Below are positions 1 through 12,087 of a stretch of DNA of 64,000 bases, in pieces. Source of the DNA: Bacillota bacterium (GTDB taxonomy: Bacteria; Bacillota; Limnochordia; Darwinibacteriales; Darwinibacteriaceae); contig DURH01000020.1 of the NCBI GenBank assembly GCA_012837385.1, positions 65,972 through 129,971 on the forward strand, read 5' to 3'. Positions within the stretch are counted from its first letter, which is position 1, and the number at the start of each line of letters is the position of its first letter. Below the pieces are notes generated by a model, which was not told where the DNA came from, searched no databases, and saw only the letters and a program-made list of their open reading frames with translations. Made by a program: the position numbers and the translations under genes.

Positions 1-487
1 GGTAGACAGTCTGAAGATTGAAGGGCGCATGAAGAGCGCCTACTATGTGGCCACTGTTGTGCGGGCCTATCGGCAGGCCCTAGACCTGTACGCCCAGGAT
101 CCTGAAAATTACCAGCTCCCAATGGAGCTCCTGGAGGAGCTGGACAAGGTGAGCCACCGGCCCTATTGGTCTGGCTTCTTTGTTCCCACTGGTGCAGGGA
201 TTCACCGCCCAACAGGCTCCTATATCCGCAGCTATGATGTGGTGGGAGTTGTAGAGGGCTATGATGATCAGCGCGGTGAAGCGGTGGTCGGCGTGCGTAA
301 CCGCCTGCCTGTGGGCTCAGAGGTGGAAATCATGCAGCCCCGGGGTCCTATCACAACGGCAGTGGTGAGCCGCCTGACCCGAGTGGAACCAGAGGAGGAG
401 CTGGAAGAAGCTCACGCAAACTTCAAGGTACGCATACCCATGGAAAAGGTAAGACCCCTTTCCATGCTGAGGATGAAAGCAGAATAA
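1..487 (+). CDS. U32 family peptidase, C-terminal part; the 5' end lies upstream of the window
   Basis: The frame is open from position 2 and reads ...DSLKIEGRMKSAYYVATVV..., the conserved U32 collagenase-like motif region. The stop is at 485-487 and a terminator follows. Confidence 0.7.
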   Translation, partial: VDSLKIEGRMKSAYYVATVVRAYRQALDLYAQDPENYQLPMELLEELDKVSHRPYWSGFFVPTGAGIHRPTGSYIRSYDVVGVVEGYDDQRGEAVVGVRNRLPVGSEVEIMQPRGPITTAVVSRLTRVEPEEELEEAHANFKVRIPMEKVRPLSMLRMKAE

Positions 488-494
488 GCACTAA

Positions 495-532
495 GCCCGA
501 GAACCGATTCCCAATCAGTTCTGGGCTTTTTT
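495..532 (+). terminator. Intrinsic terminator after the U32 peptidase gene
   Basis: An imperfect GC-rich stem (gcccgagaac...gttctgggc) is followed by TTTTTT at 527-532. Confidence 0.6.
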
Positions 533-548
533 AAAGGGAAGTGGAGCT

Positions 549-1910
549 ATGACAGCCTGGAGAGTAGGAGCAGAACATCTAGTGGAGATAACCGGCCTCA
601 CCCATGAAGGATTTGGAGTGGGGAGGGTGAACGATCGGGTAGTGTTTGTACCCCAGGCCATCCCCGGCGATCAGGTGCTGCTTCGCCTTGTACATGTTAA
701 AGAACGTTTGTCCTATGGAGATCTTCTGCGAGTAGTGGAGCCTTCTCAAGATCGCCGTAAGCCCAGTTGTCCCCATGCGGAACTCTGCGGAGGCTGCCAG
801 CTGCAGCATATGGAGTATGGCGCGCAGCTGAGCTGGAAGCGGCAGCAGGTAGTGGATGCCCTGGCGCGCTTGGGCAAGCTCTCCGTGGAAGTCCTGCCTA
901 CCATAGGAATGCAGGAGCCATACCATTACCGGAACAAAGCCCAGCTTCCCCTGGGACGCCAGGGGGGAGAACTGGTGATGGGCTTTTTCCAAAAGGGCAG
1001 TCACCGTATTGTTGATCTGTCTACCTGTGAAATCCAGCATCCCCTGATCACCACTTTGGCTCTAGCGGTGAAAAAGGCTGTGCAGGAACTGGGCATAGAG
1101 CCATATGATGAGCAGCGCCATCGGGGCGTGCTGAGGCATGCGGTGATAAGGGCCAGTTTCTCTAAAGATGCGCTCATGTTGACCCTCGTGACCAGGACCC
1201 CTGAGCTGCCCCAGCAGGCTGAACTCATTGCTCGGCTTAGCAAGGAAGTGCCCAACTTGGTGAGTGTGGCCCACAACATCAACCCAGAAGTGACCAATGT
1301 CATCCTAGGGAAAGAGACTAGGATTGTCTGGGGCGCGGAGTACCTGGAGGATTCCATTGGCCATGTGAGCTATGCCATCTCCCCTGGTTCGTTCTTTCAG
1401 GTTAACCCAGCCCAAACCAGAGTTTTATATGATCTTGTGCGGCAGAACCTGCGGTTAACAGGAAGGGAAATGGTGCTGGATCTGTACTGCGGTGCAGGAA
1501 CTATTGGGCTTTACTTAGCCGCACAGGCGGGGAAGATTGTTGGCGTGGAGACGGTAGAGGCGGCTGTACAGGATGCACGGAGAAATGCCGACCTAAACGG
1601 AATTGCCAATGCAGATTTTTACCTTGGCAGGGCAGAAGAAGTGCTTCCCAGGCTGATCAAGGACTACAAGAAAGTGGATGCAGCGGTTGTGGATCCTCCC
1701 AGGAAGGGCTGTGACGTCGCTGTGCTGAACGCTTTGGCTGAGGCTGATGTTCCTGCCCTGGTTTATGTGTCCTGCAACCCGGCGACCCTGGCCAGGGATT
1801 TGAGCCATCTCGCCGGCCTGGGCTATGGGGTGGGCTCTGTGCAGCCGGTGGACATGTTCCCCTGGACCAGCCACGTTGAGAGCGTGACAATGATATCTAG
1901 GGTAAAATAG
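549..1910 (+). CDS. rlmD: 23S rRNA (uracil-C5)-methyltransferase RlmD/RumA (TRAM domain, 4Fe-4S cluster, SAM MTase)
   Basis: N-terminal TRAM-like domain; Cys cluster CPHAELCGGCQLQH; class I MTase motif VLDLYCGAGTIGL; C-terminal SCNPATLARD with conserved Cys; RBS GGGAAGTGGAG. Confidence 0.9.
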   Translation: MTAWRVGAEHLVEITGLTHEGFGVGRVNDRVVFVPQAIPGDQVLLRLVHVKERLSYGDLLRVVEPSQDRRKPSCPHAELCGGCQLQHMEYGAQLSWKRQQVVDALARLGKLSVEVLPTIGMQEPYHYRNKAQLPLGRQGGELVMGFFQKGSHRIVDLSTCEIQHPLITTLALAVKKAVQELGIEPYDEQRHRGVLRHAVIRASFSKDALMLTLVTRTPELPQQAELIARLSKEVPNLVSVAHNINPEVTNVILGKETRIVWGAEYLEDSIGHVSYAISPGSFFQVNPAQTRVLYDLVRQNLRLTGREMVLDLYCGAGTIGLYLAAQAGKIVGVETVEAAVQDARRNADLNGIANADFYLGRAEEVLPRLIKDYKKVDAAVVDPPRKGCDVAVLNALAEADVPALVYVSCNPATLARDLSHLAGLGYGVGSVQPVDMFPWTSHVESVTMISRVK

Positions 1911-1966
1911 CATGAAGTCCGAAAACCCTGATATAACAAGGTTTTTCACACATATAGATTTGAACT

Positions 1967-2001
1967 CCACAAAGCAAGAATTACATTTTTTCGCTTTGTG
2001 G
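1967..2001. repeat. Perfect 9-bp inverted repeat (ccacaaagc / gctttgtgg) with a 17-nt loop, at the GC-rich/AT-rich boundary
   Basis: Read directly from the sequence. It lies just 3' of rlmD, where base composition drops. Confidence 0.5.
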
Positions 2002-2152
2002 GAATAAGTTAAGAAATGCCGTATTAGATAGTCAAGTGGTCAGGTTAGATGTTCTCCGGAGGTTTTTGAGGTTGACAGAGCAGGTCGGATGCAAGTATTC
2101 AGGAAGAAATTCTGTGGATTCAGCGCTATAATCTACCAATGGGGGGAAGATT

Positions 2153-3247
2153 ATGGGATACCACAGTTGTATTCTACTTGGTATTATTACTCTTTTAGTT
2201 AGCTTTCTATCTGTATCTAACAGGCAAAAACTGATCAAAAATGTTATGTTAAAAAGAATGGTAAATGTACCCACTATAATTGCCATCGTGTTTATTGCAT
2301 TTGCGGTTGTGTTGTTTCCTGATCTGGGAAGTATAAAAACCACGGGTGAATATTCTTACACTCATAGCGTGCTGGAACTGACAGATACATCACGCTTGGA
2401 AGATTATAAAAGTGATGGCTGCTTTCGCAAATTATCAGTATTGGTCTATTACCCTGACTCGGATGGTATCGAAAATAACACCTGTCCTTTGATTGTTTTT
2501 TCCCACGGCGGCATTTCAACAAAAACAAGCAACCTTTCGCTCTACAAAGAACTTGCAAGCTACGGCTATGTGGTTGTTAGCATCGATCATACATATCATT
2601 CGCTCAGTACAGAAGTTGGGGGGAAGAAAATATACATAGATTCAGGGTATATGAAAGAATTAATCACAGAGGACTCCCATTCTGATATAGAAAATTCCTA
2701 TGCCCTTTTTCAGAAGTGGATGAAACTTCGCACCGAAGACATAAATTTCGTGCTTGATACCTTTATCCGGAACGCCGCAGAAGACGGCAATTCCTTTTAT
2801 GCATTGATAAATGTGAAAAATATCGGCGTTGCCGGGCATTCTCTCGGAGGTTCCGCCGCACTTGGGGTTGCAAGGCAGCGTGATGATATAAAAGCGGTGA
2901 TCGCTATGGAATCTCCCTATATGTGTGATATAACAGGGATAGACGGAAATGACTTTATATGGGATGCGAGACCGTATTCAAGTGCTGTTATGAACATCTA
3001 TAGTGACAGTGGTTACCCTTTGATTGAAACAGACAATAAGTATGTTCAAAACAAAAATATGTACCAGAATGAAAATGTAGAAAATTACTATATTAGGGGC
3101 AGCAATCATTATACACTGACTGATTTAGTTAGAACATCACCAATTTTATGTGCTATCCTTGGTGGTGGATATAAGAAATCCGGATATGATACTTTAGAGT
3201 TTATAAATCAAAAAAGCCTTGTCTTTTTTGATAAATACCTGAAATGA
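2153..3247 (+). CDS. Membrane-anchored alpha/beta hydrolase (lipase / PAF-acetylhydrolase / dienelactone-hydrolase-like)
   Basis: Two N-terminal TM helices; SHGGISTK oxyanion region; nucleophile elbow GVAGHSLGGSAA; AT-rich codon usage unlike the flanking genes; RBS GGGGGGAAG. Confidence 0.75.
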   Translation: MGYHSCILLGIITLLVSFLSVSNRQKLIKNVMLKRMVNVPTIIAIVFIAFAVVLFPDLGSIKTTGEYSYTHSVLELTDTSRLEDYKSDGCFRKLSVLVYYPDSDGIENNTCPLIVFSHGGISTKTSNLSLYKELASYGYVVVSIDHTYHSLSTEVGGKKIYIDSGYMKELITEDSHSDIENSYALFQKWMKLRTEDINFVLDTFIRNAAEDGNSFYALINVKNIGVAGHSLGGSAALGVARQRDDIKAVIAMESPYMCDITGIDGNDFIWDARPYSSAVMNIYSDSGYPLIETDNKYVQNKNMYQNENVENYYIRGSNHYTLTDLVRTSPILCAILGGGYKKSGYDTLEFINQKSLVFFDKYLK

Positions 3248-3472
3248 TCTATATGCGGTCGATTAGTATGGTGTTGTCAGTCACCATAATTGTCCAGATT
3301 TTGCTCAGGGTGTTTGACCGAGTAACCGGGTTGAACCCGTTTCAAGTAGAATCTTCCTCTAGTTCAATTAGGGGAGGAAAGGGAGAAGCGTTGCCTGGTG
3401 GTCAAGGGTGTAAGCCTAAGTTGACAGAATGGAAAACGGGTATTTTCCTAGGGTTGAGGAGAGGGCGATAAC

Positions 3473-4390
3473 GTGGGGAAAGTTGACAGGCTATATGCGA
3501 TAACCACATATTTGATGAACCATGGTAAAACTCCAGCACGCGAGCTTTCTCAAAAATTCGAAGTGTCAGTACGCACAATTCAACGTGATATAGACTCATT
3601 ATGTCAAGCGGGGATTCCCATAGTGGCAGAAACCGGAGCAAACGGAGGCTATTATCTGGAAGAGGATTTCCGCATGGATGCACATACGGTATCAAATGAA
3701 GATTACTCGTTTATCCTTACTTCCCTAAAGGGATTCTATTCTGCTATGAAAAGTCCGAGAATTATTTCAACCCTTGAAAAAGTTGCCTCGTTAACCAAAA
3801 ATCCAGATAACACAATTATCCTTGATTTTTCGGTGTTGCGCGAGGGTGATAATCAGCTTCTGCAAATACTCCAGGATGCTATACATACCAAGTGCCCTGT
3901 CCGCTTTGAGTATACAAATGCAGACAACATTACACGAATACATAACGTTGAACCGATAGCCGTCGTATACCGGTGGTATTCTTGGTACTTGCTTGCTTAT
4001 TCTGTTGTTAAGAACGATTATAGAACATATAAACTGATTAGAATGAGAAAGGCCAAGATAGTCGACGCTGCTTTTACGCTGGAGCATAGAAAGGCAGAAG
4101 AAATCTTACATGACATAGATAAACAGATGCCACGAAAGCTTACCGAAATAACTGTTTACGTCAAATCGGAGGCGCGTGCCAAGGCCGTTGAATATCTAAA
4201 CGGTACAATTACTCGTGAATATGACAATAACGACTGTGATATGGTACTGAATGTCATTGAAAATGAGCACCTATGGTTTGGAATGCTGTTATCGCTTGGT
4301 GATGGGATTGAGGTCAAGGCACCAGAGCATATCAGAAATCGGGTACTTGAGTCGGCGAAAAAAATGGTAGCGCTGTATCAAAAACTGTGA
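3473..4390 (+). CDS. WYL-domain transcriptional regulator (HTH_11 plus WYL, YafY-like); GTG start
   Basis: N-terminal HTH RLYAITTYLMNHGKTPARELSQKFEVSVRTIQRDIDSL; central WYL core YRWYSWYLLAYS; RBS GAGGAGAGGG; AT-rich. Confidence 0.8.
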   Translation: MGKVDRLYAITTYLMNHGKTPARELSQKFEVSVRTIQRDIDSLCQAGIPIVAETGANGGYYLEEDFRMDAHTVSNEDYSFILTSLKGFYSAMKSPRIISTLEKVASLTKNPDNTIILDFSVLREGDNQLLQILQDAIHTKCPVRFEYTNADNITRIHNVEPIAVVYRWYSWYLLAYSVVKNDYRTYKLIRMRKAKIVDAAFTLEHRKAEEILHDIDKQMPRKLTEITVYVKSEARAKAVEYLNGTITREYDNNDCDMVLNVIENEHLWFGMLLSLGDGIEVKAPEHIRNRVLESAKKMVALYQKL

Positions 4391-4457
4391 CATGACGTTG
4401 TCGTAGTTTCTCTGTTATGATTAACTCATAACAACAAAGAAACGGAGGCAACGAACG

Positions 4458-4823
4458 ATGGCTAGTATTAAAAGATACGATGTAAGCGAGGAAAACGCAT
4501 GGTCACAAATGGTAGAGGCGGGAGATTTTGTGTTTCTGAATTTCTGTGTAGGAAATGTTGGCCAATCTGTTGAAGCACAGGTACATGGTGCATTGGATGA
4601 TTTGGAAAATCGTCTAAAAGACATTGGCTTGACTTTAGAATCTGTGGTCAAGGTAGATGTTTTATTACGAGATGCATGGAATATACCTATCATGGAAAAG
4701 GTTTTTCAGGAACGTTTCGCTGGTACATATCCCGCGAGAAAGACGATCCAGACAGATTTTGCACATTTTGGTGGTCCAGATGGGCTTCATGCGCAACTTG
4801 ATGCAATTGCGTATAGGAGATAA
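4458..4823 (+). CDS. ridA: RidA/YjgF/L-PSP family reactive-intermediate deaminase
   Basis: About 120 aa with YjgF-like signature (...VKVDVLLRD...ARKTIQ...); GGAGG RBS. Confidence 0.8.
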   Translation: MASIKRYDVSEENAWSQMVEAGDFVFLNFCVGNVGQSVEAQVHGALDDLENRLKDIGLTLESVVKVDVLLRDAWNIPIMEKVFQERFAGTYPARKTIQTDFAHFGGPDGLHAQLDAIAYRR

Positions 4824-4892
4824 GCTGCAGATAACAACTACAGAGTGACTGTGTGAGCGTTGACCTGGAATTGGAGGGTGGAGTGGGTGGAT

Positions 4893-5636
4893 ATGAGATT
4901 TGACCCGAACAATGCCGTTATCCAACTGTGTATGAACGGGCTGAAATTGGAGGATAGCGGAAAGCCTGAAGAGGCAGCCGCGCTTTTTCATCAGGCATGG
5001 CGCGAAGCAGCTGACGACTATGAAAGGTTCATTGCGGCCTATCATTTGGCTCGGCAGCAGAAGAGTGTTACAGACAAGTTGCGCCTGCTGGAAACCTCTT
5101 TGCAGTGTGCACTAAAAGTGGATGATGACAATGTTAAAAGCGCCTACCCTACGCTGTATGCAAACATTGCCAGATGCTATGAGGAGTTACGGGATTTTGA
5201 CAATGCAAAAAGAAACTATGAGCTATCAAGTGTACATAAGGGTGCGCCGTCTGATCAAGGGCCGTTTTATCATGGAACAAAGGCAGATTTGCAGGTTGGT
5301 GATTTCTTGACAGCCGGTGGGAAGTCAAATTACGACCCCGAGCTTAGAATGAACCACATATATTTCACTGCCAATCTAAATGGCGCAAGACTTGCGGCGG
5401 CTCTGGCGAAAGGTGAAGGCAGGGAACGCGTTTATATAGTGGAGCCCACAGGTGAATTTGAGGACGACCCCAATGTTACTGACAAGAAGTTCCCGGGCAA
5501 CTTGACACGTTCCTATCGCTCGCGAGAACCCTTAAGAATTATTGGAGAAGAGACTGAGTGGGAGAAACTGACAGCTAAAGAGCGAGGTGAATGGCACAAA
5601 AAACTAGCTGAAAACAAGGGTGAAATCATCAACTGA
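4893..5636 (+). CDS. arr: Arr-type NAD+--rifampin ADP-ribosyltransferase domain fused to a roughly 100-aa N-terminal helical (TPR-like) extension
   Basis: The C-terminal 140 aa read GPFYHGTKADLQVGDFLTAG...HIYFTANLNGA...YIVEPTGEFEDDPNVTDKKFPGNLTRSYRSREPLRIIGE, collinear with the Arr signature. Start ATG 4893 has RBS GGAGGGTGGAGTGGGTGG. The N-terminal part has no Arr counterpart. Confidence 0.75.
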   Translation: MRFDPNNAVIQLCMNGLKLEDSGKPEEAAALFHQAWREAADDYERFIAAYHLARQQKSVTDKLRLLETSLQCALKVDDDNVKSAYPTLYANIARCYEELRDFDNAKRNYELSSVHKGAPSDQGPFYHGTKADLQVGDFLTAGGKSNYDPELRMNHIYFTANLNGARLAAALAKGEGRERVYIVEPTGEFEDDPNVTDKKFPGNLTRSYRSREPLRIIGEETEWEKLTAKERGEWHKKLAENKGEIIN

Positions 5637-5741
5637 GCATGAAGCTGAATCAGTGGACGGTACGATACGTGCCGAAGGTGTGCTACTGAGAAGCAGATAG
5701 CCGTTAACAGGGAAGAATCCGCCCATGGGGGATGACATAGC

Positions 5742-6848
5742 ATGCATACTGCAGCATATCTGATAGACATCGCAGCACTGTTTTATCTGATGGGACTCCT
5801 GCATTCAAACACCTCGTTGAATGCTGAGCGCCAGAAGCCCTTTCTTATCGCCGTAACGCTCACTATATCCGTAATCGTGTTGGAAGCGGCGACGATCGTG
5901 ACCAACAATTACAACCTCAATCTCCGTGGTTTTCACATTCTCTGTAATACCCTGGGCTTTGCCCTGGCCCCACTGATTCCCTTGGCCATAGCCCTCATTT
6001 TTGACCGTATGATTTTGGAGAAACACAGGATTATGCTGCTGCCCACGGTGTTAAACGCCGCGGCTGCAGCATTGTCTCCTGTGTTTGGATGGATCTTTAC
6101 GGTGGATGCAGCTAACAACTACACACGGGGTGATTTCTTCTTTGCTTTTGTCGCAGTGTACGCCACAAATCTCCTGTGTCTAATCATCGCCACCGTAGAA
6201 GTGGCAAAGAGGAAGAACTATCCCATCGTAAGTAAGATGGCGGGGCTGGGAGTTTTCACCTTCATTGGGACAAGCGTCCAGCTGCTTTTTCCTTCCTCTT
6301 ATACTTCCTGGCACTGCGTTACGCTGTCCCTCCTGCTTTATCTGCTCTTGATGTCGGAGTTTGACAGCAGCTTTGACACTCTAACCAATGTATACAACCG
6401 AGCAGCCTTTGATAAGCAGGTGAAACGCATCTCTGAAGCCAAGGGAAAGGACCATGCATTCTCCCTGATCATGCTTGATATCGATGATTTTAAGGCGGTC
6501 AACGACACCTACGGACATGATTGCGGAGACGATGTGATCAAGGCAGTGGCAGCTGTTGTGCGGGAATCCTTCGACAAGCGATACACCTGTTACCGAGTGG
6601 GCGGCGATGAGTTCTCCCTGATCGGCAGCGAGACAGATGCAGAGAAGATTGAGGAACAGCTTGCAAATCTGAAAAGCGGCCTGGCCAGGCTTAGGGAAGA
6701 GGGAGCCATCCTGCCAACAGTGTCCTGTGGATACAGCGTTTATATAGGCGGAGAAAAGCTGAATTTTCACAAGGTCCTGAAGGAGGCCGACGGCCAGATG
6801 TATCACAACAAGCTGAGGACCAAGGGACGGGAGAAGAGCACTCCCTAG
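5742..6848 (+). CDS. Membrane-sensor diguanylate cyclase (multi-TM N-terminus plus GGDEF)
   Basis: Five to six predicted TM helices, then a GGDEF domain with an intact RVGGDEFSL active-site motif. Confidence 0.85.
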   Translation: MHTAAYLIDIAALFYLMGLLHSNTSLNAERQKPFLIAVTLTISVIVLEAATIVTNNYNLNLRGFHILCNTLGFALAPLIPLAIALIFDRMILEKHRIMLLPTVLNAAAAALSPVFGWIFTVDAANNYTRGDFFFAFVAVYATNLLCLIIATVEVAKRKNYPIVSKMAGLGVFTFIGTSVQLLFPSSYTSWHCVTLSLLLYLLLMSEFDSSFDTLTNVYNRAAFDKQVKRISEAKGKDHAFSLIMLDIDDFKAVNDTYGHDCGDDVIKAVAAVVRESFDKRYTCYRVGGDEFSLIGSETDAEKIEEQLANLKSGLARLREEGAILPTVSCGYSVYIGGEKLNFHKVLKEADGQMYHNKLRTKGREKSTP

Positions 6849-6874
6849 CTTGGCCGGCTGGAGGGGAGGAAGCG

Positions 6875-7642
6875 GTGATGAAACAGTGGTACGAAAAGTT
6901 GTGGGAGAATTTCGGGAAGGGGTATGATCAGGAGCCCTTTACTCAGGGGACTATTGGCGAATGTGATTTCCTTGAAAAGGAGCTGAACTACGATAGATCC
7001 CTAGAGATCATCGATGTCGGCTGCGGAACGGGCAGGCATACCATCGAACTCACCAAACGAGGCTACTCCGTCACTGGGATCGATTTGTCTGAGGCTCAGC
7101 TGAGAAGGGCTAAGGAAAAGGCGAAGGAGCAGAATCTGCAGATTGAGTTCTTCCGGCATGATGCGCGGGACCTGCCCTTTGATCATCAGTTCGATGCAGC
7201 CATTATGCTCTGCGAAGGTGCCTTTCCCCTTATGGAAACGGATGAGATGAACTTCCAGATCTTAAGGAGCGTCACTAAGGCCCTTAAACGCGGTGGCAAG
7301 TTCATATTCACCACACTCAACGGCTTATATCCGTTGGTGCGGTTCAAAGCTCTCTATGGCAAACCCGGTGCCCAAGGAGAGGGAGAGGCAGCTGCCGGAG
7401 GCAGTTTCGATCTACTCACCATGCGGGAACGCTCCATCTTGGACTTCATCGATGACGATGGCCGCCAACAGCGCGTTGAGGTCGAGGAGAGATACTATCT
7501 ACCCAGTGAAATTACCTGGCTCTTGAAATCCTTGGGATACAGAAGAGTAGAAATCTTCGGGGTTACACTGGGAGCCTTCTCTAGAGATGAGCCTCTCACA
7601 CCGGATCACTTCGAAATGCTCGTAGTGGCTGAGAAGGAATAG
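6875..7642 (+). CDS. Class I SAM-dependent methyltransferase
   Basis: Motif I IIDVGCGTGRHTIEL; acidic residue after beta-2 (TGIDLS); RBS GGAGGGGAGGAAG. Confidence 0.8.
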   Translation: MMKQWYEKLWENFGKGYDQEPFTQGTIGECDFLEKELNYDRSLEIIDVGCGTGRHTIELTKRGYSVTGIDLSEAQLRRAKEKAKEQNLQIEFFRHDARDLPFDHQFDAAIMLCEGAFPLMETDEMNFQILRSVTKALKRGGKFIFTTLNGLYPLVRFKALYGKPGAQGEGEAAAGGSFDLLTMRERSILDFIDDDGRQQRVEVEERYYLPSEITWLLKSLGYRRVEIFGVTLGAFSRDEPLTPDHFEMLVVAEKE

Positions 7643-7645
7643 AAA

Positions 7646-7668
7646 GGGGGAAGCCCAGCGCTTCCCCC
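7646..7668. terminator. Bidirectional hairpin terminator between the convergent MTase and rsgA genes
   Basis: A 9-bp perfect stem gggggaagc/gcttccccc with a 5-nt loop lies between two convergent stop codons. Confidence 0.6.
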
Positions 7669-7675
7669 TCAGTAT

Positions 7676-8758
7676 CTAGTTCTTCTTGCCCTTGAACTGC
7701 TTTCTGTGCTGCTTCATTTCGTTTTTGCCGCCAAACATTCGGTTGAGCTTTTCCTGTTCACGCTGCCGGGAATTGAGCTCCGCATATGCTGCTTCCCGCT
7801 GCAGCTTCAGATAGCTTTGCAGACGCTCTGCCGAAAGTGTCCCGCTGTGGATAGCTTCCCGAACTGCGCAGCCTGGTTCTGAGCCGTGAGAACAGTCGCT
7901 GAAGCGGCACGATCCAGCAATTTCCTCAATGTCCTCAAAAGCCCTGGAAAGGTTGGCGGTGTAGATCTGCAGTTCCCGCATACCAGGGGTATCGATCACT
8001 ATGCCGCCGCTGGGCAGCTTCAACAGTTGGCGGTAGGTAGTGGTATGCCGTCCTCGACCATCATCTTCCCGGATTGCCCCAGTGGCAAGTACCTCTTGCC
8101 CCATAAGGCGATTGATGATGGTGGACTTGCCCACACCTGAGGAGCCCACAAAGGCGATGGTTCTACCAGCTTCAACATAGGAATTGATTTCCTCAAAACC
8201 CTGCCCATTTTCTGCAGAGCAGGTGATCACATCCACCCCAACGCTCACAGCGGAGATTTCTCTGAGCTTGTGCGGTAGATCAGAGCACAGGTCAGACTTG
8301 GTCAACACGATAATAGGAGCAGCCATGCTGTCCCAGGCGATGGTTAGGTAGCGTTCCAGGCGCCTGACGTTGAAGTCCTCATTGAGCGCCATGCAGATGA
8401 AAATGGTGTCAATATTGGCTGCGATAACTTGTTCCGAGTACTTCGTCCCCGCGGCTTTGCGCACTAGGGCGCTCTTCCGGCGCAGGATATGATGGATTAT
8501 AGCGCTGCCCGTTCTGTCATTGCAGCGGTCCACCATCACCCAGTCCCCAACAGCAGGGAAGCTAAGTTGGCTGTCAGCCTGATGCACCAGTTTCCCTGCC
8601 AATCTGGCCTCGAATCCTCCGCCCTCTCCGATTACCCGATATAGGTCACGGTGCTGTTCTGACACTCTGGCCAGAAACAGTCCATCGTACATGGCCGCCT
8701 CTTGGGTAAACCGTTCGCTCAAACCGTATTCTTTCAAGTTTATAGTCAATGCTGTCAA
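7676..8758 (-). CDS. rsgA: Ribosome small-subunit-dependent GTPase A (RsgA/YjeQ); the annotated TTG start at 8758 lacks a good RBS, and an alternative ATG at 8692 has an AAGAGG RBS
   Basis: OB-fold N-terminus; circularly permuted GTPase motifs (TKSDL, VGSSGVGKSTIINRL, DTPGMRE); C-terminal zinc knuckle CRFSDCSHGSEPGCAV. Confidence 0.85.
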   Translation of the reverse strand: MTALTINLKEYGLSERFTQEAAMYDGLFLARVSEQHRDLYRVIGEGGGFEARLAGKLVHQADSQLSFPAVGDWVMVDRCNDRTGSAIIHHILRRKSALVRKAAGTKYSEQVIAANIDTIFICMALNEDFNVRRLERYLTIAWDSMAAPIIVLTKSDLCSDLPHKLREISAVSVGVDVITCSAENGQGFEEINSYVEAGRTIAFVGSSGVGKSTIINRLMGQEVLATGAIREDDGRGRHTTTYRQLLKLPSGGIVIDTPGMRELQIYTANLSRAFEDIEEIAGSCRFSDCSHGSEPGCAVREAIHSGTLSAERLQSYLKLQREAAYAELNSRQREQEKLNRMFGGKNEMKQHRKQFKGKKN

Positions 8759-8800
8759 ATCCTTTCGCTAAGGTATGTGCTCCAAAGAACCTGCGAAAGC

Positions 8801-8858
8801 AAAAAGCGCAGTTGCCCACTGCGCTGTACACGAAAAAGCGGAAAAGAGACGCTCTTCC
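8801..8858 (-). promoter_or_regulatory. Two tandem terminator-like hairpins with T-tracts inside the rsgA 5' leader (putative attenuator, or the SPFH-RHH operon terminator)
   Basis: Minus strand: ggaagagcgtctcttttcc then gcttttt, and gcgcagtgggcaactgcgc then tttttgctttc. Both lie between a candidate promoter and the rsgA start. Confidence 0.4.
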
Positions 8859-8976
8859 GTCCTTCCTCAAGGCTCCTGGGCACACTTAACAAGCGGGTGA
8901 AAACCCACTTCTGTGACACACAACTAACGGCCTCAACGAAGGACAGACATCCGCACACCTCTTTCTTCTAGAAAGA

Positions 8977-9005
8977 AGTGTACCACTCAGCTGAGAAGCT
9001 GTCAA
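8977..9005 (-). promoter_or_regulatory. Candidate sigma-A promoter on the minus strand (TTGACA, 17 nt, TACACT)
   Basis: Perfect -35, 17-nt spacer, -10 matching 4 of 6. It sits about 220-290 nt upstream of rsgA. Confidence 0.4.
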
Positions 9006-9032
9006 AGGGGAAAAAGACGGCGCCATAATAGG

Positions 9033-9065
9033 ATCACCCTGCTTCTCCTGGAAAAGCAGGGTGAT
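9033..9065. terminator. Perfect 12-bp stem hairpin (atcaccctgctt / aagcagggtgat, 9-nt loop) immediately 3' of the RHH gene
   Basis: Read directly. There is no clean U-tract, so it may be a terminator or an operator. Confidence 0.4.
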
Positions 9066-9068
9066 GCT

Positions 9069-9266
9069 TTAAGGCTCTGGTGTTTGCTTGTCAGACAGAT
9101 CCGGGGGAACATATCTGCCTGTTTTCTTGCGCTGCCGGACACATTGGGTTAGCAGATATTCGATTTGACCGTTGATGGATCTGAAATCCTCCCCAGCCCA
9201 AGCTGCAATTTCATCATACAGCTTCTGCGATAGGCGCAGGGGAATCTGCTTTTTCTTCTCAGCCAT
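9069..9266 (-). CDS. Small ribbon-helix-helix (Arc/MetJ-like) DNA-binding protein, translationally coupled to the upstream SPFH gene
   Basis: 65 aa; the N-terminus KKQIPLRLSQKLYDEIAAWA has an RHH-like beta-strand then helix pattern; its start lies 2 nt after the SPFH stop. Confidence 0.55.
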   Translation of the reverse strand: MAEKKKQIPLRLSQKLYDEIAAWAGEDFRSINGQIEYLLTQCVRQRKKTGRYVPPDLSDKQTPEP

Positions 9267-9268
9267 GC

Positions 9269-10294
9269 TTAATACAGACTCCCGCTATTCACTACCGGCT
9301 GGGCATCTCGATTCCCGCAGAGGACAACCAGCAAGTTGGACACCATAGCAGCTTTCCTCTCCTCGTCCAGGTTGATTACATCATTTTCGTTGAGCTTATC
9401 TAAGGCCATTTCCACTATGCTTACCGCACCATCCACAATCATCTTCCGGGCGTCCACAATGGCGCTGGCCTGCTGCCTCTGGAGCATTACTGCCGCGATT
9501 TCCGGAGCGTAGGCAAGGTAGGTGATGCGTGTTTCTAAGATTTCCAGGCCGGCATCCTTGACCTTCTCCTGGAGCTGTTTACGGATGCGTTCAGCCACGA
9601 TGGTGCTGGAACCGCGCAGGCTTCCTTCGTCCGGCTGCCCATCACCAGTGGTGTCAATGCCTGGAGCCATATCATAAGGGTAAATCCGGACGATGTCCCT
9701 CACCGCACTATCGCACTGCAGCGAGAGGTACTCTTTGTAGTTGTCCACGTTAAAAACGGCTTTCGCGGTGTCCACAACCCGCCACATGACGGCCACCCCG
9801 ATCTCTACCGGGTTGCCCAAGGCATCATTTACTTTCTGCCTGGAATTGCTCAGCGTTAGGATTTTCAGTGACACCTTCTTGCTGAGACGGCTGTCTAGAG
9901 AGACATTGCCAGATTGCGATACTGTGACATTGAATTTGCTGTCGCTTTCCACATCTCCGCTCTGCCCGAGCCGCGTTCTAGCCGCGGGGTTTACAGCCAC
10001 TGCAAAGGGGTGGACGAAATAGAATCCCGGTTCTTTGAGGGTTCCGATGTACTTTCCAAACAGGGTCAAGACTAACGCTTCTTGAGGCTTGATGATCTTC
10101 AGTCCTAGGAAGGGGATAAAACCGACTATTACCCACAGGAGCCCTGTCCCCAGCAGCACGCCTCCCAAGGCAGCAGCTCCCCTATCCAGCAAGACACCAC
10201 CCACGATGATCAGGGCAATGGCTGCCGCGTAAAGCAAAATGAAGAGGATCAATATGGGCATACCAGCTCTAGCCTTTAATGTTTTCTCCTGCAT
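9269..10294 (-). CDS. SPFH/band-7 (stomatin/prohibitin-like) membrane protein
   Basis: N-terminal TM helices; SPFH core (KIIKPQEALVLTLFGKYIGTLKEPGFYFVHPF...). Start ATG 10294 has RBS GGAGGCGGAAT; the longer ORF reaching 10357 lacks an RBS. Confidence 0.85.
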   Translation of the reverse strand: MQEKTLKARAGMPILILFILLYAAAIALIIVGGVLLDRGAAALGGVLLGTGLLWVIVGFIPFLGLKIIKPQEALVLTLFGKYIGTLKEPGFYFVHPFAVAVNPAARTRLGQSGDVESDSKFNVTVSQSGNVSLDSRLSKKVSLKILTLSNSRQKVNDALGNPVEIGVAVMWRVVDTAKAVFNVDNYKEYLSLQCDSAVRDIVRIYPYDMAPGIDTTGDGQPDEGSLRGSSTIVAERIRKQLQEKVKDAGLEILETRITYLAYAPEIAAVMLQRQQASAIVDARKMIVDGAVSIVEMALDKLNENDVINLDEERKAAMVSNLLVVLCGNRDAQPVVNSGSLY

Positions 10295-10312
10295 ATTCCG
10301 CCTCCACTCATA

Positions 10313-10340
10313 TTGATATGATATATTAATGATATCATAA
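10313..10340. promoter_or_regulatory. Operator-like site in the divergent intergenic region: direct repeat ATGATAT x2 including the perfect palindrome ATGATATCAT
   Basis: Read directly, between the SPFH start and the TPP-enzyme start. Confidence 0.3.
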
Positions 10341-10485
10341 TGGTATGAATCCAACAATAGGGTTTTTCCTCATTTGGCAGATCATGGCTTGGTCATGTGA
10401 GCTTCGGCCCCGAGAGCTGGCAGCAAGGGTAAAAAAACCAGCAGAGGGCATGCTTTTGGTAAAACATAATGGAGTGAAACCAGCG

Positions 10486-12087
10486 ATGAATCAAGCAACG
10501 GTGGCCCGCGCATTGGCCGATCTGCTGAATGCTTGGGGTGTGGAACACGTCTTTGGTACGGCGGGAGATACTATCCTGCACTTCCTGGCCTCCCTGCACG
10601 GTCATCCCACTCGGTTTATCCAACTGAGAAATGAAGAAACAGCGGCGTATGCAGCTTCGGCCTATGCCAAACTCACAGGGAAACTAGGTGTGGTGGTGGC
10701 TGATGGAGGGCCCGGAACAGGGCGGTTAGTAAATGGTTTGGCTGACGCCATAAGTGATAGGGCTCCGGTCTTGGCCATTACCGGCCAGGTGGAGACCACT
10801 TTTTTGGGGACAGGCTACAAGCAGTACATCAACCAGCAGCAGCTGCTTGGTGCGGTTACTATCCGATCCGAGAATCTAGGCGTTCCAACCAGTTTAGTGG
10901 CAGTAGCCTCCGCCCTGGTGCGCACGGCACTCGCCCAAGGAGGGCCAGTACACCTCAGCATCCCCAAGGATTTCTGGCAGGAGCACGTAGGATCTGCCTT
11001 GGTTAAGACAGAGCCTTTTCTATCTGAGATGCCCCAATCGGCTGATTCAGTAATCGCCAAAGGGGCTGAATGGGTCTCGGCTCTGCAGAAGCCCATGGTC
11101 TTAGTGGGCAGGGGAGCTTCACATGCTGTACCAGAAGTGCTTGCCCTGGCTGAACGGTTGGGAGCAGGGATAGCATACACCCTGCCAATGGTGGGTGCTA
11201 TGCCCGAACATCCCCTCGTTGTAGGGGGAATAGGTGAGGGAGGATCGGAGGTATCCGTTGAGCTTCTGCGTCAGTGCGACGGCGTAGTTAGAGTTGGCGC
11301 GACCTATTGGCCTCCTGAGTTTACCTCTGATGAGAAGAGAGTTTTGTCCCTTGATGCAGTTCCTGCTCAGGTGAGCATGGGCATCTCCGCGGACTTCGGT
11401 TTGGTAGGTGACACTAAGGCGGTGCTTGCCAAGCTGCTCAGCCAACTCGGGGACACAGCTGTGCACGGTCCATGGATCGACCAGGTGAGAAATGAAGCTG
11501 CGGAATGGCACCAGCGGCTGGAGAGAGAATTGGAGGAGGCTTCACCAAACCATCCTGGGAAGGCGGTAAGGATTCTGGCCGAGCACGCAGCAGCTGATGT
11601 CGTGATCTGCCTGGATGTGGGCGATCATGTGCTCTGGTTCAGCCGGTTCTTCCAAGGGAAGGGACAGAAGGTCTTGGTCTCAGGACGCTGGCGCGGCATG
11701 GGCTTTTCCCTGGGAGCCAGCATTGCCGCGCAGCTTGCCAAACCCCAGAGCCAAGTGTTAACGGTTGTAGGCGATGGAGGTTTTTCCATGTTAATGGGCG
11801 ATTTTGTGTCCGCAGTTGAGTTAGGACTTCCCATCACTTACATACTCATGAACAATAAGTCCTATGCGCTGGAAGCTAATGCCATGGCTGCCTCGGGGCT
11901 TGAGCCCTGTGGCGTACAGCTCGGTGATATCCGCTTTGACCAAGTGTCTCAGGCCTGTGGGGGTTTGGGCTATCGGATATCTCCCCCAGAGCTGCAGTCT
12001 GTGTTGGATACGGCAAAGAATGCTATCAAGCCCGTTCTCATCGACCTGCAGGTGGACCCCATCAAATTTCCAACAGCGCGGCTGTAG
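10486..12087 (+). CDS. Thiamine-pyrophosphate-dependent enzyme (pyruvate oxidase / acetolactate synthase family)
   Basis: N-terminal TPP-pyrimidine domain (GVEHVFGTAGDTILHF), central domain, C-terminal TPP-binding GDGGFSM...N motif. Start ATG 10486 has RBS GGAGTG; the ORF-track start at 10345 lacks an RBS. Confidence 0.8.
   Translation: MNQATVARALADLLNAWGVEHVFGTAGDTILHFLASLHGHPTRFIQLRNEETAAYAASAYAKLTGKLGVVVADGGPGTGRLVNGLADAISDRAPVLAITGQVETTFLGTGYKQYINQQQLLGAVTIRSENLGVPTSLVAVASALVRTALAQGGPVHLSIPKDFWQEHVGSALVKTEPFLSEMPQSADSVIAKGAEWVSALQKPMVLVGRGASHAVPEVLALAERLGAGIAYTLPMVGAMPEHPLVVGGIGEGGSEVSVELLRQCDGVVRVGATYWPPEFTSDEKRVLSLDAVPAQVSMGISADFGLVGDTKAVLAKLLSQLGDTAVHGPWIDQVRNEAAEWHQRLERELEEASPNHPGKAVRILAEHAAADVVICLDVGDHVLWFSRFFQGKGQKVLVSGRWRGMGFSLGASIAAQLAKPQSQVLTVVGDGGFSMLMGDFVSAVELGLPITYILMNNKSYALEANAMAASGLEPCGVQLGDIRFDQVSQACGGLGYRISPPELQSVLDTAKNAIKPVLIDLQVDPIKFPTARL

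Follow-up and report, generated by a model that had tools for sequence, protein, structure and literature searches.

A long-form Arr-type ADP-ribosyltransferase gene with an N-terminal TPR domain as a member of a large annotated subfamily

The gene, its start codon and its surroundings

The window, i.e. the whole stretch of DNA that was analysed with a length of 64,000 nucleotides, carries on its forward strand a gene for a two-domain protein, in which a three-repeat TPR domain precedes an Arr-type ADP-ribosyltransferase domain. The features of the locus are the following, with counterparts in Arr-ms of Mycobacterium smegmatis given where available:

4873..4883, + strand: Shine-Dalgarno-like sequence GGAGGGTGGAG, found by reading of the sequence and aligning with the invariant GGAGG of relatives
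4893..5636, + strand: coding sequence of the long-form (TPR-Arr) rifamycin ADP-ribosyltransferase, 247 aa plus stop (open reading frame with ATG at 4893 and stop codon at 5634-5636)
4893..5246, + strand: three-repeat TPR domain, aa 1-118, with helices at residues 8-21, 25-38, 42-53, 59-75, 79-82, 85-98 and 102-115
5253..5633, + strand: Arr ADP-ribosyltransferase domain, aa 121-247
5271..5279, + strand: HGT motif H127-G128-T129, equivalent to Arr-ms H19-G20-T21 (alignment)
5325..5333, + strand: S145-N146-Y147, the SN[Y/F] NAD+-site motif (alignment; roles according to PMC6092378)
5361..5363, + strand: Y157, equivalent to Arr-ms Y49 of the H-Y-D motif (alignment; PMC6092378)
5466..5501, + strand: catalytic D192 (Arr-ms D84) followed by the rifampin-binding loop P-N194-V195-T196-D-K198-K199-F200-P-G-N203 (alignment)
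5592..5606, + strand: alpha-2 helix W234-H-K-K-L238, at the position of the short-form M[R/K][D/E]xL rifampin-site motif (alignment)

An in-frame alternative start, GTG at 4887, would give a protein of 249 aa beginning with MDMRFD. In the alignment of the 5′ regions the ATG of relatives falls on this GTG, and 249 aa is the usual length in the family. GGAGG at 4873-4877 is located 9 nt upstream of the GTG, and GGAG at 4880-4883 is located 9 nt upstream of the ATG at 4893.

As described in an earlier sequence-only reading of this DNA, the gene adjoins a RidA-family gene (PF01042, 4458-4823) and an AT-rich islet with a GC content of 0.37-0.43 over about positions 2000-4800, compared to about 0.51-0.59 in the flanks. 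These surroundings, which also include a WYL regulator, are specific to this genome: among 81 long-form loci the RidA neighbour was seen only in the window and the WYL regulator only in the window and in one further locus (L026). No riboswitch or other RNA element was detected upstream in an Rfam scan of positions 1-12000 (E<=0.1), and promoter and terminator matches within 3300-6000 were no more numerous than in shuffled sequence. A weak extended -10 promoter-like match lies at 4392-4421, ahead of ridA. An anti-phage defence function, conceivable from the combination of ADP-ribosyltransferase, TPR and adjacent WYL regulator, was rejected, since PADLOC-DB models gave 0 matches for the TPR-Arr protein; the stand-alone TPR protein P0375 likewise gave none, and the neighbouring WYL regulator matched generic PADLOC WYL models only.

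The two domains of the protein

The assignment of the C-terminal part to the Arr family was confirmed at several levels. Pfam family PF12120 (Arr-ms) matched residues 125-223 over its full profile (1-99) with an E-value of 1.4e-45 and 153.9 bits (cutoff 25), the NCBIfam equivalog NF033144 'rifampin_ARR' scored 147.2 bits against a cutoff of 130, and the PDB entries of Arr-ms (2hw2/9iaf) and Arr-2 (9iba) were matched with E-values of 1.6e-35 and 4.1e-34, respectively. The domain has the Arr fold, and the motifs that had been pointed out before (GPFYHGTKA, HIYFT, YIVEPTGEFEDDPNVTDKKFPGN.TRSYR and PLRIIG) were all found.

Alignment to 2hw2 revealed that the H-Y-D triad (H127, Y157, D192) and the HGT and SN[Y/F] motifs are all kept. 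In Arr-ms, H19-G20-T21 serve NAD+ binding and catalysis, F39 (the counterpart of Y147) makes a hydrophobic contact and K91 (the counterpart of K199) a cation-pi contact with rifampin, and M[R/K][D/E]xL is the rifampin-site motif in alpha-2 of the short forms (PMC6092378). The rifampin loop between beta5 and beta6 (D192 to N203) is retained together with S207 (= S99), so that the query possesses H127, G128, T129, S145-N146-Y147, Y157, D192, N194, V195, T196, K198, K199, F200, S207 and L238 (roles according to PMC6092378 and PMC8492726). Across 35 long forms from several phyla, H127/G128, S145-N146-Y147, Y157, D192, N194, T196, K198-K199-F200 and S207 are invariant, while T129, V195 and L238 are conserved in at least 90%.

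Three parts of the substrate pocket are changed. In alpha-2 the short-form M126 is replaced by W234, with L130 kept as L238, and the sequence WHKKL of the query carries a lysine at the acidic position of the long-form consensus W-R-E-x-L (W[R/H][E/K]xL). The alpha-1 sequence 'AxWGAELA' of the short forms reads 'GA(G/R)LAAALA' in the long forms. P96 of Arr-ms is L204 in the window gene and its Bacillota relatives and stays P in the aligned long forms of Bacteroidota, Cyanobacteria, Acidobacteriota and Chloroflexota. Due to these changes in alpha-1, alpha-2 and at P96 the substrate preference could differ. An invariant C-terminal tail, 'NKGEIIN', was considered as a long-form-specific ligand of the TPR domain; the idea was dropped because two aligned Bacteroidota short Arrs carry a comparable hydrophobic tail after alpha-2.

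For the N-terminal domain, TPR profile matches remained below threshold, the best being TPR_2 with 20.2 bits against a gathering score of 27; some homologues of the query carry precomputed TPR matches. The AlphaFold2 model contains seven helices in this domain, arranged in the TPR helix-turn-helix fold with three repeats, and the mean pLDDT of 10-residue blocks is 75-97, rising to 86-97 beyond residue 20. With a shallow alignment the Arr domain was modelled poorly (pLDDT 69); with 131 sequences a pLDDT of 82.7 and a pTM of 0.56 were reached, the rifampin-binding loop 195-203 having low pLDDT in the model.

The sequence-only reading had named an internal Met start, giving a protein of about 150 aa, as the event that would remove the fusion. 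In that case the long open reading frame would be an annotation artefact: translation would begin internally and yield an Arr of about 125-150 aa, and the 118 codons before it would stay untranslated, in agreement with the 140-150 aa of the characterised Arrs. The present data refute such an internal start, and we assign it practically no probability. The N-terminal 118 codons show a dN/dS of 0.12-0.15 at a pS of about 0.55-0.6 (Arr domain: dN/dS 0.05-0.10) and give a confidently predicted TPR fold. Among 586 relatives, the 80 species genomes that match best retain the domain as protein sequence; its median identity to relatives is 56% (Arr domain: 75%), and it is 47-58% identical across other phyla. 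Furthermore, after residue 14 the translation has no Met until M153, which itself lies inside the Arr domain past the HGT motif, and the GGAGG ribosome binding site and the 5′ leader are kept at the long start in relatives. The proposed N-terminal extension is thus a genuine translated TPR-like domain, as evident from low dN/dS, conservation across phyla and the predicted helices.

Distribution, mobility and the stand-alone TPR family

The rarity of the fusion that the earlier reading had implied did not hold, because long-form Arr proved to be a well-populated and already annotated subfamily, a situation which that reading itself had named as refuting. The best 120 database matches are all 247-249 aa long except one 298-aa variant, and at least 80 species genomes (the best 80 of 586 relatives) contain a full-length copy; they belong to Bacillota, Bacteroidota, Cyanobacteria, Ignavibacteriales, Caldilineaceae and Acidobacteriota. 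In PGAP the long forms are called "NAD(+)--rifampin ADP-ribosyltransferase". The identical protein is found on 91 contigs of public collections, where its JGI name is 'tetratricopeptide (TPR) repeat protein'. The window gene is therefore an ordinary member of a large annotated subfamily and no one-off fusion.

On the conjugative Enterococcus faecium multiresistance plasmid pI, one copy belongs to a resistance island: it is flanked by aph(2'')-IVa on one side and lsa(E)/lnu(B) on the other, and a transposase of IS1216 lies about 3.5 kb upstream. In the table for this one plasmid record, AMRFinderPlus/RGI 'predicted_resistance_gene' rows exist for the neighbours and none for arr. Clustering of the open reading frames of 81 long-form loci yielded no conserved partner gene; the commonest neighbours were RibD_C (10), glyoxalase/bleomycin-resistance-type (8) and ABC (8) genes. 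The 5′ leader and the ribosome binding site are common to unrelated Bacillota genera, which indicates a cassette-like, horizontal transfer of long-form arr.

Residues 1-115 of the query are homologous to a family of stand-alone TPR proteins of about 140-150 aa with the signature 'AAHYVARHQ ... PSLYLN' (e.g. P0375, P0391). The three-TPR layout is found in both, at E-values down to 3e-39 and 35-56% identity, and both occur in similar neighbourhoods of small resistance or detoxification genes with RibD_C. An additional conserved helix, 'LPxDGYGxMIRxGIxxGLERV', closes the stand-alone proteins at the position where the query runs on into the Arr domain, so that the N-terminal domain of the query is without the C-terminal capping helix of its homologues. 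Beyond weak TPR matches, no Pfam or NCBIfam family covers them. Some are labelled 'rifampin ADP-ribosylating transferase' by JGI though they have no enzyme domain. Arr is the sole enzymatic fusion partner seen among the longer TPR matches inspected, four of which were run against Pfam.

In Bacteroidota contigs (L092, L167-176, L183-189) a spacer of about 70 bp separates the gene for a stand-alone TPR protein (140 aa) from a downstream short arr (151 aa), and stand-alone TPR genes were also found in co-oriented clusters with short arr (L105, L135/136) or long arr (L177-179). The genes lying beside short arr in the Bacteroidota cassettes suggest that the TPR family and Arr are functionally linked. 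At the same time, most stand-alone homologues have no arr nearby, the Actinomycetota plasmid loci are devoid of nearby arr or rifamycin genes, and one operon encodes a stand-alone TPR in addition to a long-form Arr. The absence of arr near most of these genes and the operon with both forms mean that the role of the TPR family is not strictly Arr-specific.

The same cassettes bear on a regulatory role of the TPR domain. The domain might pair with a Crp-like transcription factor, or act as an autoinhibitory or NAD+-sparing switch, and might have been fused through operon adjacency; the Arr chemistry would then be unchanged and the TPR domain would control only its timing. In the Bacteroidota cassettes the order of a cNMP_binding Crp-like regulator (188 aa) followed by the TPR gene (140 aa) is indeed constant, while the downstream cargo varies between short Arr, GNAT, RibD_C and DUF4180...long Arr. 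The adjacency of TPR and short arr offers an obvious route to fusion, and in a crude neighbor-joining tree the stand-alone TPRs of these cassettes lie beside the long-form TPRs of Bacteroidota and Cyanobacteria, although a tree of 118 columns is not robust. However, the Crp-like neighbour is not recurrent in the Bacillota long-form loci, and purifying selection has preserved the fused TPR domain in at least six phylum-level lineages in the absence of that regulator. A purely regulatory role is therefore regarded as rather unlikely.

Proposed function and comparison with known Arr enzymes

Characterised Arr enzymes ADP-ribosylate rifamycins at the C23 hydroxyl of the ansa chain, which ends the inhibition of RNA polymerase. 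Since the long forms retain the catalytic and NAD+-binding residues and most of those in contact with rifampin, they too are best read as inactivating rifamycins. We consider it reasonably probable that the protein belongs to a widespread subfamily of long-form Arr proteins and is a cytoplasmic two-domain rifamycin-inactivating enzyme with an obligate accessory TPR domain. The C-terminal domain would act as a class-I mono-ADP-ribosyltransferase converting NAD+ and rifamycin to ADP-ribosylated rifamycin, as judged from residue conservation, and rifamycin is thus the inferred substrate.

The TPR domain would be an obligate accessory module under joint selection with the enzyme. Its junction with the Arr domain lies about 6-10 residues ahead of the HGT strand and adjoins the part that lines one side of the rifampin cleft (F9, V87, L92 and P96 of the short forms). 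Because the TPR domain lacks its own capping helix and is joined beside this side of the cleft, it most likely packs against the Arr domain. The role that we infer for it is structural: the packed domain may be a stabilising, cleft-modulating or partner-binding element rather than one that redirects the enzyme to a new substrate.

Such a redirection had been put forward in the sequence-only reading. The TPR domain would then recruit a protein partner or another small molecule, which would be ADP-ribosylated instead of or besides rifamycins. The pocket differs from that of the short forms (M126->W234, P96->L204, altered alpha-1), environmental taxa such as Nostoc and Chitinophagaceae contain many members of the family, stand-alone TPR genes head operons of varied small putative detoxification genes, and the title of PMC3138739 as well as PMC8492726 suggest roles of Arr other than on rifamycins. 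Against this, the rifampin contacts, among them K199 (K91) and the DPN[V/L]T.KK.PGN loop, are almost all invariant or nearly so across phyla, the NCBIfam equivalog score exceeds its cutoff, and the Arr domain is nearer to Arr-ms/Arr-2 than to Bacteroidota short Arrs. Moreover, a copy sits with antibiotic-resistance genes on a conjugative plasmid, and the 81 loci have no conserved partner gene. Retargeting found no positive support and is held to be unlikely.

Beyond the inactivation of rifamycins by the long forms themselves, the TPR domain could be a hitherto unrecognised accessory factor of rifamycin resistance, acting in cis in long-form Arr or in trans where it is encoded directly upstream of short arr. 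It might shape the cleft, stabilise the enzyme or tether it, for example to RNA polymerase; 'Crp-like regulator, TPR, Arr, RibD_C' would be a mobile Bacteroidota cassette. The long forms would then make up a large, unvalidated resistome branch that has reached a conjugative E. faecium plasmid and differs in its properties from Arr-ms/Arr-2, including in its range towards newer rifamycins. We regard this wider proposal as doubtful.

Arr is a clinically relevant rifamycin-inactivating enzyme, and the design of rifamycins and inhibitors against it rests on the short forms. TPR-Arr proteins are abundant in Bacillota, Bacteroidota and Cyanobacteria and present on a conjugative E. faecium multiresistance plasmid; if the pocket changes (M->W in alpha-2) or the TPR domain alter substrate range or stability, sequence-based resistance predictions would need adjusting. 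The main genomic Arr survey apparently excluded the long forms by its filters; its supplement gives 0/80 for Nostoc and 0/16 for Desulfosporosinus, though both genera carry them. In the literature searched, neither an activity study of a long-form member nor a paper on the two-domain architecture was found. For the window gene itself the outcome is mostly deflationary, as the subfamily is large and annotated already.

Compared to the long-form arr genes in databases, the query has no architectural difference: WP_021401106.1 on E. faecium plasmid pI (NZ_CP045013.1), WP_461363683.1 from a Bacillota bacterium and the plasmid-borne arr of Nostoc, Fischerella and Gloeothece have the same two-domain layout with 247-249 aa. 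The identity of the query is 64-76% to nine plasmid copies, 74% to the E. faecium protein, up to 85% to the closest relatives and at least 90% to the same-cluster entry WP_461363683.1.

The functionally verified Arrs are about 140-150 aa long, as the earlier reading had said of canonical Arr proteins, and no long-form member is among them (PMC8492726); the solved Arr structures found are likewise short forms only, namely 2hw2, 9iaf (with rifampicin and the ligand Chr-16) and 9iba. With 247/249 aa and an added TPR domain of 118 aa, the query does not fit the single-domain size of about 140-150 aa. The alignment that the earlier reading had proposed gave, over about 105-115 residues of the Arr domain, 58% identity to Arr-ms (M. 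smegmatis, 2HW2/9IAF) and 56% to the integron-borne Arr-2 (9IBA), whereas bona fide Bacteroidota short Arrs reach 41-47%; compared to two aligned members of the latter, the C-terminus of the query is about 5 residues shorter. Common to the query, Arr-ms and Arr-2 are the H-Y-D triad, HGT, SN[Y/F], the DPN[V/L]T.KK.PGN..SYR rifampin loop and a C-terminal amphipathic helix with a hydrophobic tail. The query differs from both by W[RH][EK]xL instead of M[RK][DE]xL in alpha-2, by 'GA(G/R)LAAALA' instead of 'AxWGAELA' in alpha-1, by L instead of P96 in the Bacillota branch, and by the extra 118-aa N-terminal TPR domain.

Domain organisation of TPR-Arr

The open reading frame of TPR-Arr is intact and comprises 247 codons (window 4893..5636, forward strand). 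Two domains were assigned:

Residues 1-118, forward strand: TPR domain (sub-threshold TPR HMM matches and AlphaFold2)
Residues about 121-247, forward strand: Arr domain (Pfam, NCBIfam and PDB matches)

The Arr-type domain claimed in the sequence-only reading was confirmed by PF12120, which was covered over the whole profile in the Pfam search (1.4e-45), by the NCBIfam equivalog NF033144 (147 bits, above the cutoff of 130) and by alignment with the PDB chains of the single-domain enzymes Arr-ms of M. smegmatis (2hw2/9iaf, 1e-35) and Arr-2 (9iba, 4e-34), to which the aligned domain is 58% and 56% identical, respectively. With the roles of functional residues taken from Shin et al. (PMC6092378) and Morgado et al. 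(PMC8492726), H127-G-T (H19-G20-T21), S145-N-Y147 (SN[Y/F]; F39), Y157 (Y49), D192 (D84), N194, V195, T196, K198, K199 (K91, cation-pi), F200 (L92), S207 (S99) and L238 (L130) were found to be kept, and these positions are invariant or nearly so in long forms of several phyla.

All TPR HMM matches to residues 1-118 were below threshold, and AlphaFold2, run with a 131-sequence alignment, gave seven helices in this region with a pLDDT of mostly 86-97, lower in the first 20 residues; the extension had been described as helical and TPR-like, and this description holds. In comparison to eight relatives, dN/dS was 0.12-0.15 for codons 1-118 (pS about 0.55-0.6) and 0.05-0.10 for the Arr domain. The median identity of 34 long-form relatives to the window protein was 56% for the N-domain and 75% for the Arr domain.

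The relatives start with ATG ('MN(I/V)KFDPNN'), preceded at 8 nt by an invariant GGAGG, and the leader 'tttcattaatttGGAGGtaagattagATG' is common to Oceanobacillus, Fictibacillus, Pelotomaculum and Lacrimispora. In the window, the position of their ATG is taken by an in-frame GTG at 4887, from which a protein of the usual family length of 249 aa (MDMRFD...) would result, while ATG 4893 yields 247 aa. Both codons have GGAG(G) 9 nt upstream, and the start is ambiguous, the choice being immaterial to the finding. A short Arr arising from a mis-called start or an internal Met, an alternative raised in the sequence-only reading, was excluded by the purifying selection on codons 1-118, by the kept leader and RBS and by the lack of a suitable Met: none occurs from residue 14 until M153, which lies within the Arr domain past the HGT motif, so that a 150-aa product is unavailable. 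On this sequence evidence, the extension is translated.

Distribution, mobility and genomic context

In a search of a 5.8-billion-protein collection the best 120 matches were inspected. All were 247-249 aa long with full coverage and 77-85% identity, except for a 298-aa variant with 91% coverage. Several were named 'NAD(+)--rifampin ADP-ribosyltransferase' (Clostridium, Neobacillus, Desulfosporosinus, Aminipila, Sporolactobacillus, Bacillus), and others were labelled 'TPR repeat protein' by JGI. The 298-aa metagenomic protein (P0002) contains a direct duplication inside its Arr domain that covers about 60 residues (KGEGRERVYIVEPTG...LNKWRE twice) and is due either to tandem duplication or to an assembly artefact of the 1.6 kb contig.

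At least 586 relatives were found in a one-genome-per-species scan, the best 80 of which all span residues 1-247 (or 2-247) and include, at 55-68% identity, members from Bacteroidota (Pedobacter, Mucilaginibacter, Chitinophagaceae), Cyanobacteria (Nostoc, Calothrix, Microcoleus), Ignavibacteriales, Caldilineaceae and Pyrinomonadaceae. A second search with a divergent member as query again returned long forms only. The exact window protein was found on 91 public contigs, and long forms are located on nine plasmids, eight of them with the annotation arr or 'rifampin ADP-ribosyl transferase' and one, in Niallia taxi, with a match without a listed feature. TPR-Arr belongs, as an unexceptional member, to a long-form Arr subfamily that is large, horizontally mobile and annotated in databases. 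The earlier interpretation stands in part, namely for the Arr domain and the translated TPR-like extension; the implied rarity of the fusion does not, given the almost exclusively long best 120 matches, the number of relatives and the database names of this well-populated, annotated subfamily.

On the conjugative E. faecium plasmid pI (NZ_CP045013.1; L163, 5992-6741) a long-form arr encoding 249 aa (74% identical) is flanked by aph(2'')-IVa on one side and lsa(E)/lnu(B) on the other, in a multiresistance region that also holds a DinB-family gene; an IS1216 transposase is located about 3.5 kb upstream of arr. The plasmid record holds no AMRFinderPlus/RGI 'predicted resistance gene' row for arr, but such rows for the neighbouring genes. 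About 30-120 nt upstream of arr were compared between nine loci (L002, L003, L004, L005, L006, L010, L012, L020, L026): leader and RBS share 87-96% DNA identity among distantly related Bacillota genera and the sequence further upstream is unrelated, which suggests that long-form arr travels as a small cassette that brings along its translation signals.

The genes surrounding TPR-Arr in the window are, in order:

Before 549: peptidase-U32 fragment
549-1910: TRAM/U5-methyltransferase
2153-3247: PAF-AH/PETase-like alpha/beta hydrolase (low-GC islet)
3473-4390: HTH-WYL-WCX regulator (low-GC islet)
4458-4823: RidA-family gene, PF01042 (low-GC islet), followed by TPR-Arr
5742-6848: membrane GGDEF protein
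After 6848: methyltransferase, then RsgA

The RidA neighbour and the AT-rich islet noticed before were both recovered, the latter at about 2000-4800 with a GC content of 0.37-0.43 vs about 0.51-0.59 in the flanks. Apart from two cases, these neighbours are not shared with the other long-form loci. A TRAM-methyltransferase also precedes arr in L003 and L006, and in Lacrimispora (L026, 4824-5732) an HTH-WYL-WCX regulator, 30% identical to that of the window, lies directly downstream of long-form arr, the sole other such adjacency among 81 loci. As the homologous methyltransferase of Pelotomaculum (L003) is located about 250 bp upstream of arr and the gap in the window is about 3 kb, the islet appears to have been inserted between the two genes. 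Given that 70 bp separate ridA from arr and that a promoter-like site precedes ridA, co-transcription of both genes is possible. No Rfam element was found at the TPR-Arr locus, and PADLOC gave no match for TPR-Arr.

The TPR family outside the fusion

Residues 1-119 were searched against 1.84 billion cluster representatives, resulting in 466 matches at E<=1e-3 (200 at E<=1e-10). The majority are stand-alone proteins of about 140-150 aa in which a conserved helix, 'LPxDGYGxMIRxGIxxGLERV', comes after the three TPRs shared with the long form; this capping helix occupies the position at which the Arr domain starts in the long form. A minority of about 220 aa carries a further, uncharacterised helical C-terminal extension. 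In a branch of about 220-270 aa (P0155, P0159, P0205, P0253) an additional helical region at the C-terminus shows the conserved pattern 'DLKxLAxLLPxYxGNLG...LPxxEQ', without a Pfam match. Apart from weak TPR matches, the stand-alone proteins matched no Pfam or NCBIfam family, and Arr was the sole enzymatic fusion partner seen for this TPR family among the longer matches inspected. Several stand-alone TPRs of 140-144 aa without an Arr domain (P0383, P0389, P0394, P0402, P0436, P0448, P0471, P0481) are named 'rifampin ADP-ribosylating transferase' by JGI, which looks like annotation carried over from the long-form N-domain.

An unbiased metagenome sample provided 80 stand-alone-TPR loci, which were analysed together with two earlier look-ups (82 loci, 44 of them >4 kb). 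An Arr domain occurred within 6 kb of the TPR on four contigs, in two architectures. From look-ups of further members beyond this sample a recurrent Bacteroidota module was described, in which a Crp-like regulator (cNMP_binding, 188 aa) and a TPR protein (140 aa) are followed by variable cargo:

L092, L167-176, L183-189: short Arr (151 aa, about 70 bp downstream) and RibD_C
L177-179: DUF4180-SnoaL_2-DUF1801-AHSA1-Cupin_2-(no Pfam hit)-RibD_C-long-form Arr
L193 (Parapedobacter): GNAT and RibD_C
L194: RibD_C in a conjugative-transposon-like region (relaxase, MobC, TraG-like, RteC)
L195: AraC and RibD_C

A RibD_C reductase is nearly always among the cargo (Bacteroidota contigs L092, L167-L189, L193-L196), and reductases of this type are the commonest neighbour of stand-alone TPRs and likewise of long-form arr. 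The Crp-then-TPR pair is absent from L105 and L135/136, which are arranged MarR-short Arr-...-TPR, and L190 has neither this pair nor Arr. Directly downstream of the Crp-TPR-Arr-RibD_C cassette, L167 (3827-4186) and L170 (3261-3620) carry a small mCpol/Cas10-palm-like gene (PF18182, PF22335).

Altogether, Arr is present in 3 of 7 distinct stand-alone-TPR architectures, vs any Arr in only about 5% of genomes (PMC8492726), an informal comparison that would place TPR-Arr linkage far above chance expectation. The link is not exclusive: the majority of stand-alone TPRs have no arr nearby, and in one operon a stand-alone TPR occurs together with a long Arr. In a crude and weak NJ tree the Bacteroidota stand-alone TPRs are placed beside long-form TPRs of Bacteroidota and Cyanobacteria, compatible with a fusion of adjacent genes.

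Proposed mechanism and comparison with known Arr enzymes

The likeliest mechanism, and a fairly probable one, is that the C-terminal domain would ADP-ribosylate rifamycins in an NAD+-dependent reaction, with the TPR domain as a selected accessory module to Arr. The TPR/Arr junction lies about 6-10 residues ahead of the HGT strand, and in Arr-ms the region before HGT supplies F9, one of the residues on the shallow 'hydrophobic-2' side of the rifampin cleft (PMC6092378). Taken together with the missing capping helix, this points to a TPR domain that may pack against Arr near the cleft; the pTM of 0.56 of the two-domain AlphaFold2 model is too low to fix the orientation. A mainly regulatory TPR, as previously proposed, is rather unlikely beside the accessory role.

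In the literature search no paper describing the TPR-Arr architecture was found. Arr-domain proteins ranging from 36 to 679 aa were recorded by Morgado et al. (PMC8492726), whose analysis was confined to those passing identity and coverage limits relative to Arr-ms. Since their supplementary genus table gives 0/80 for Nostoc and 0/16 for Desulfosporosinus and both genera carry long forms according to database matches, the long forms were presumably filtered out of that survey. This presumed filtering, the lack of a TPR-Arr paper and the missing AMRFinderPlus/RGI rows indicate that the long-form subfamily is annotated by homology alone. The novelty lies not in the fusion itself but in a TPR-Arr partnership observed in cis as well as in trans, and in a branch that had been overlooked.

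Compared to short forms, long forms have W[RH][EK]xL (WHKKL in the window) in place of the alpha-2 motif M[RK][DE]xL, and 'GA(G/R)LAAALA' in place of 'AxWGAELA' of alpha-1; in the Bacillota branch P96 of Arr-ms is replaced by L204. These differences could tune specificity and would not suggest a loss of the pocket. A long-form enzyme retargeted to another substrate, the other role put forward earlier, is considered improbable. The long-form Arr domain is nearer to Arr-ms and Arr-2 than to the short Arrs of Bacteroidota (41-47%).
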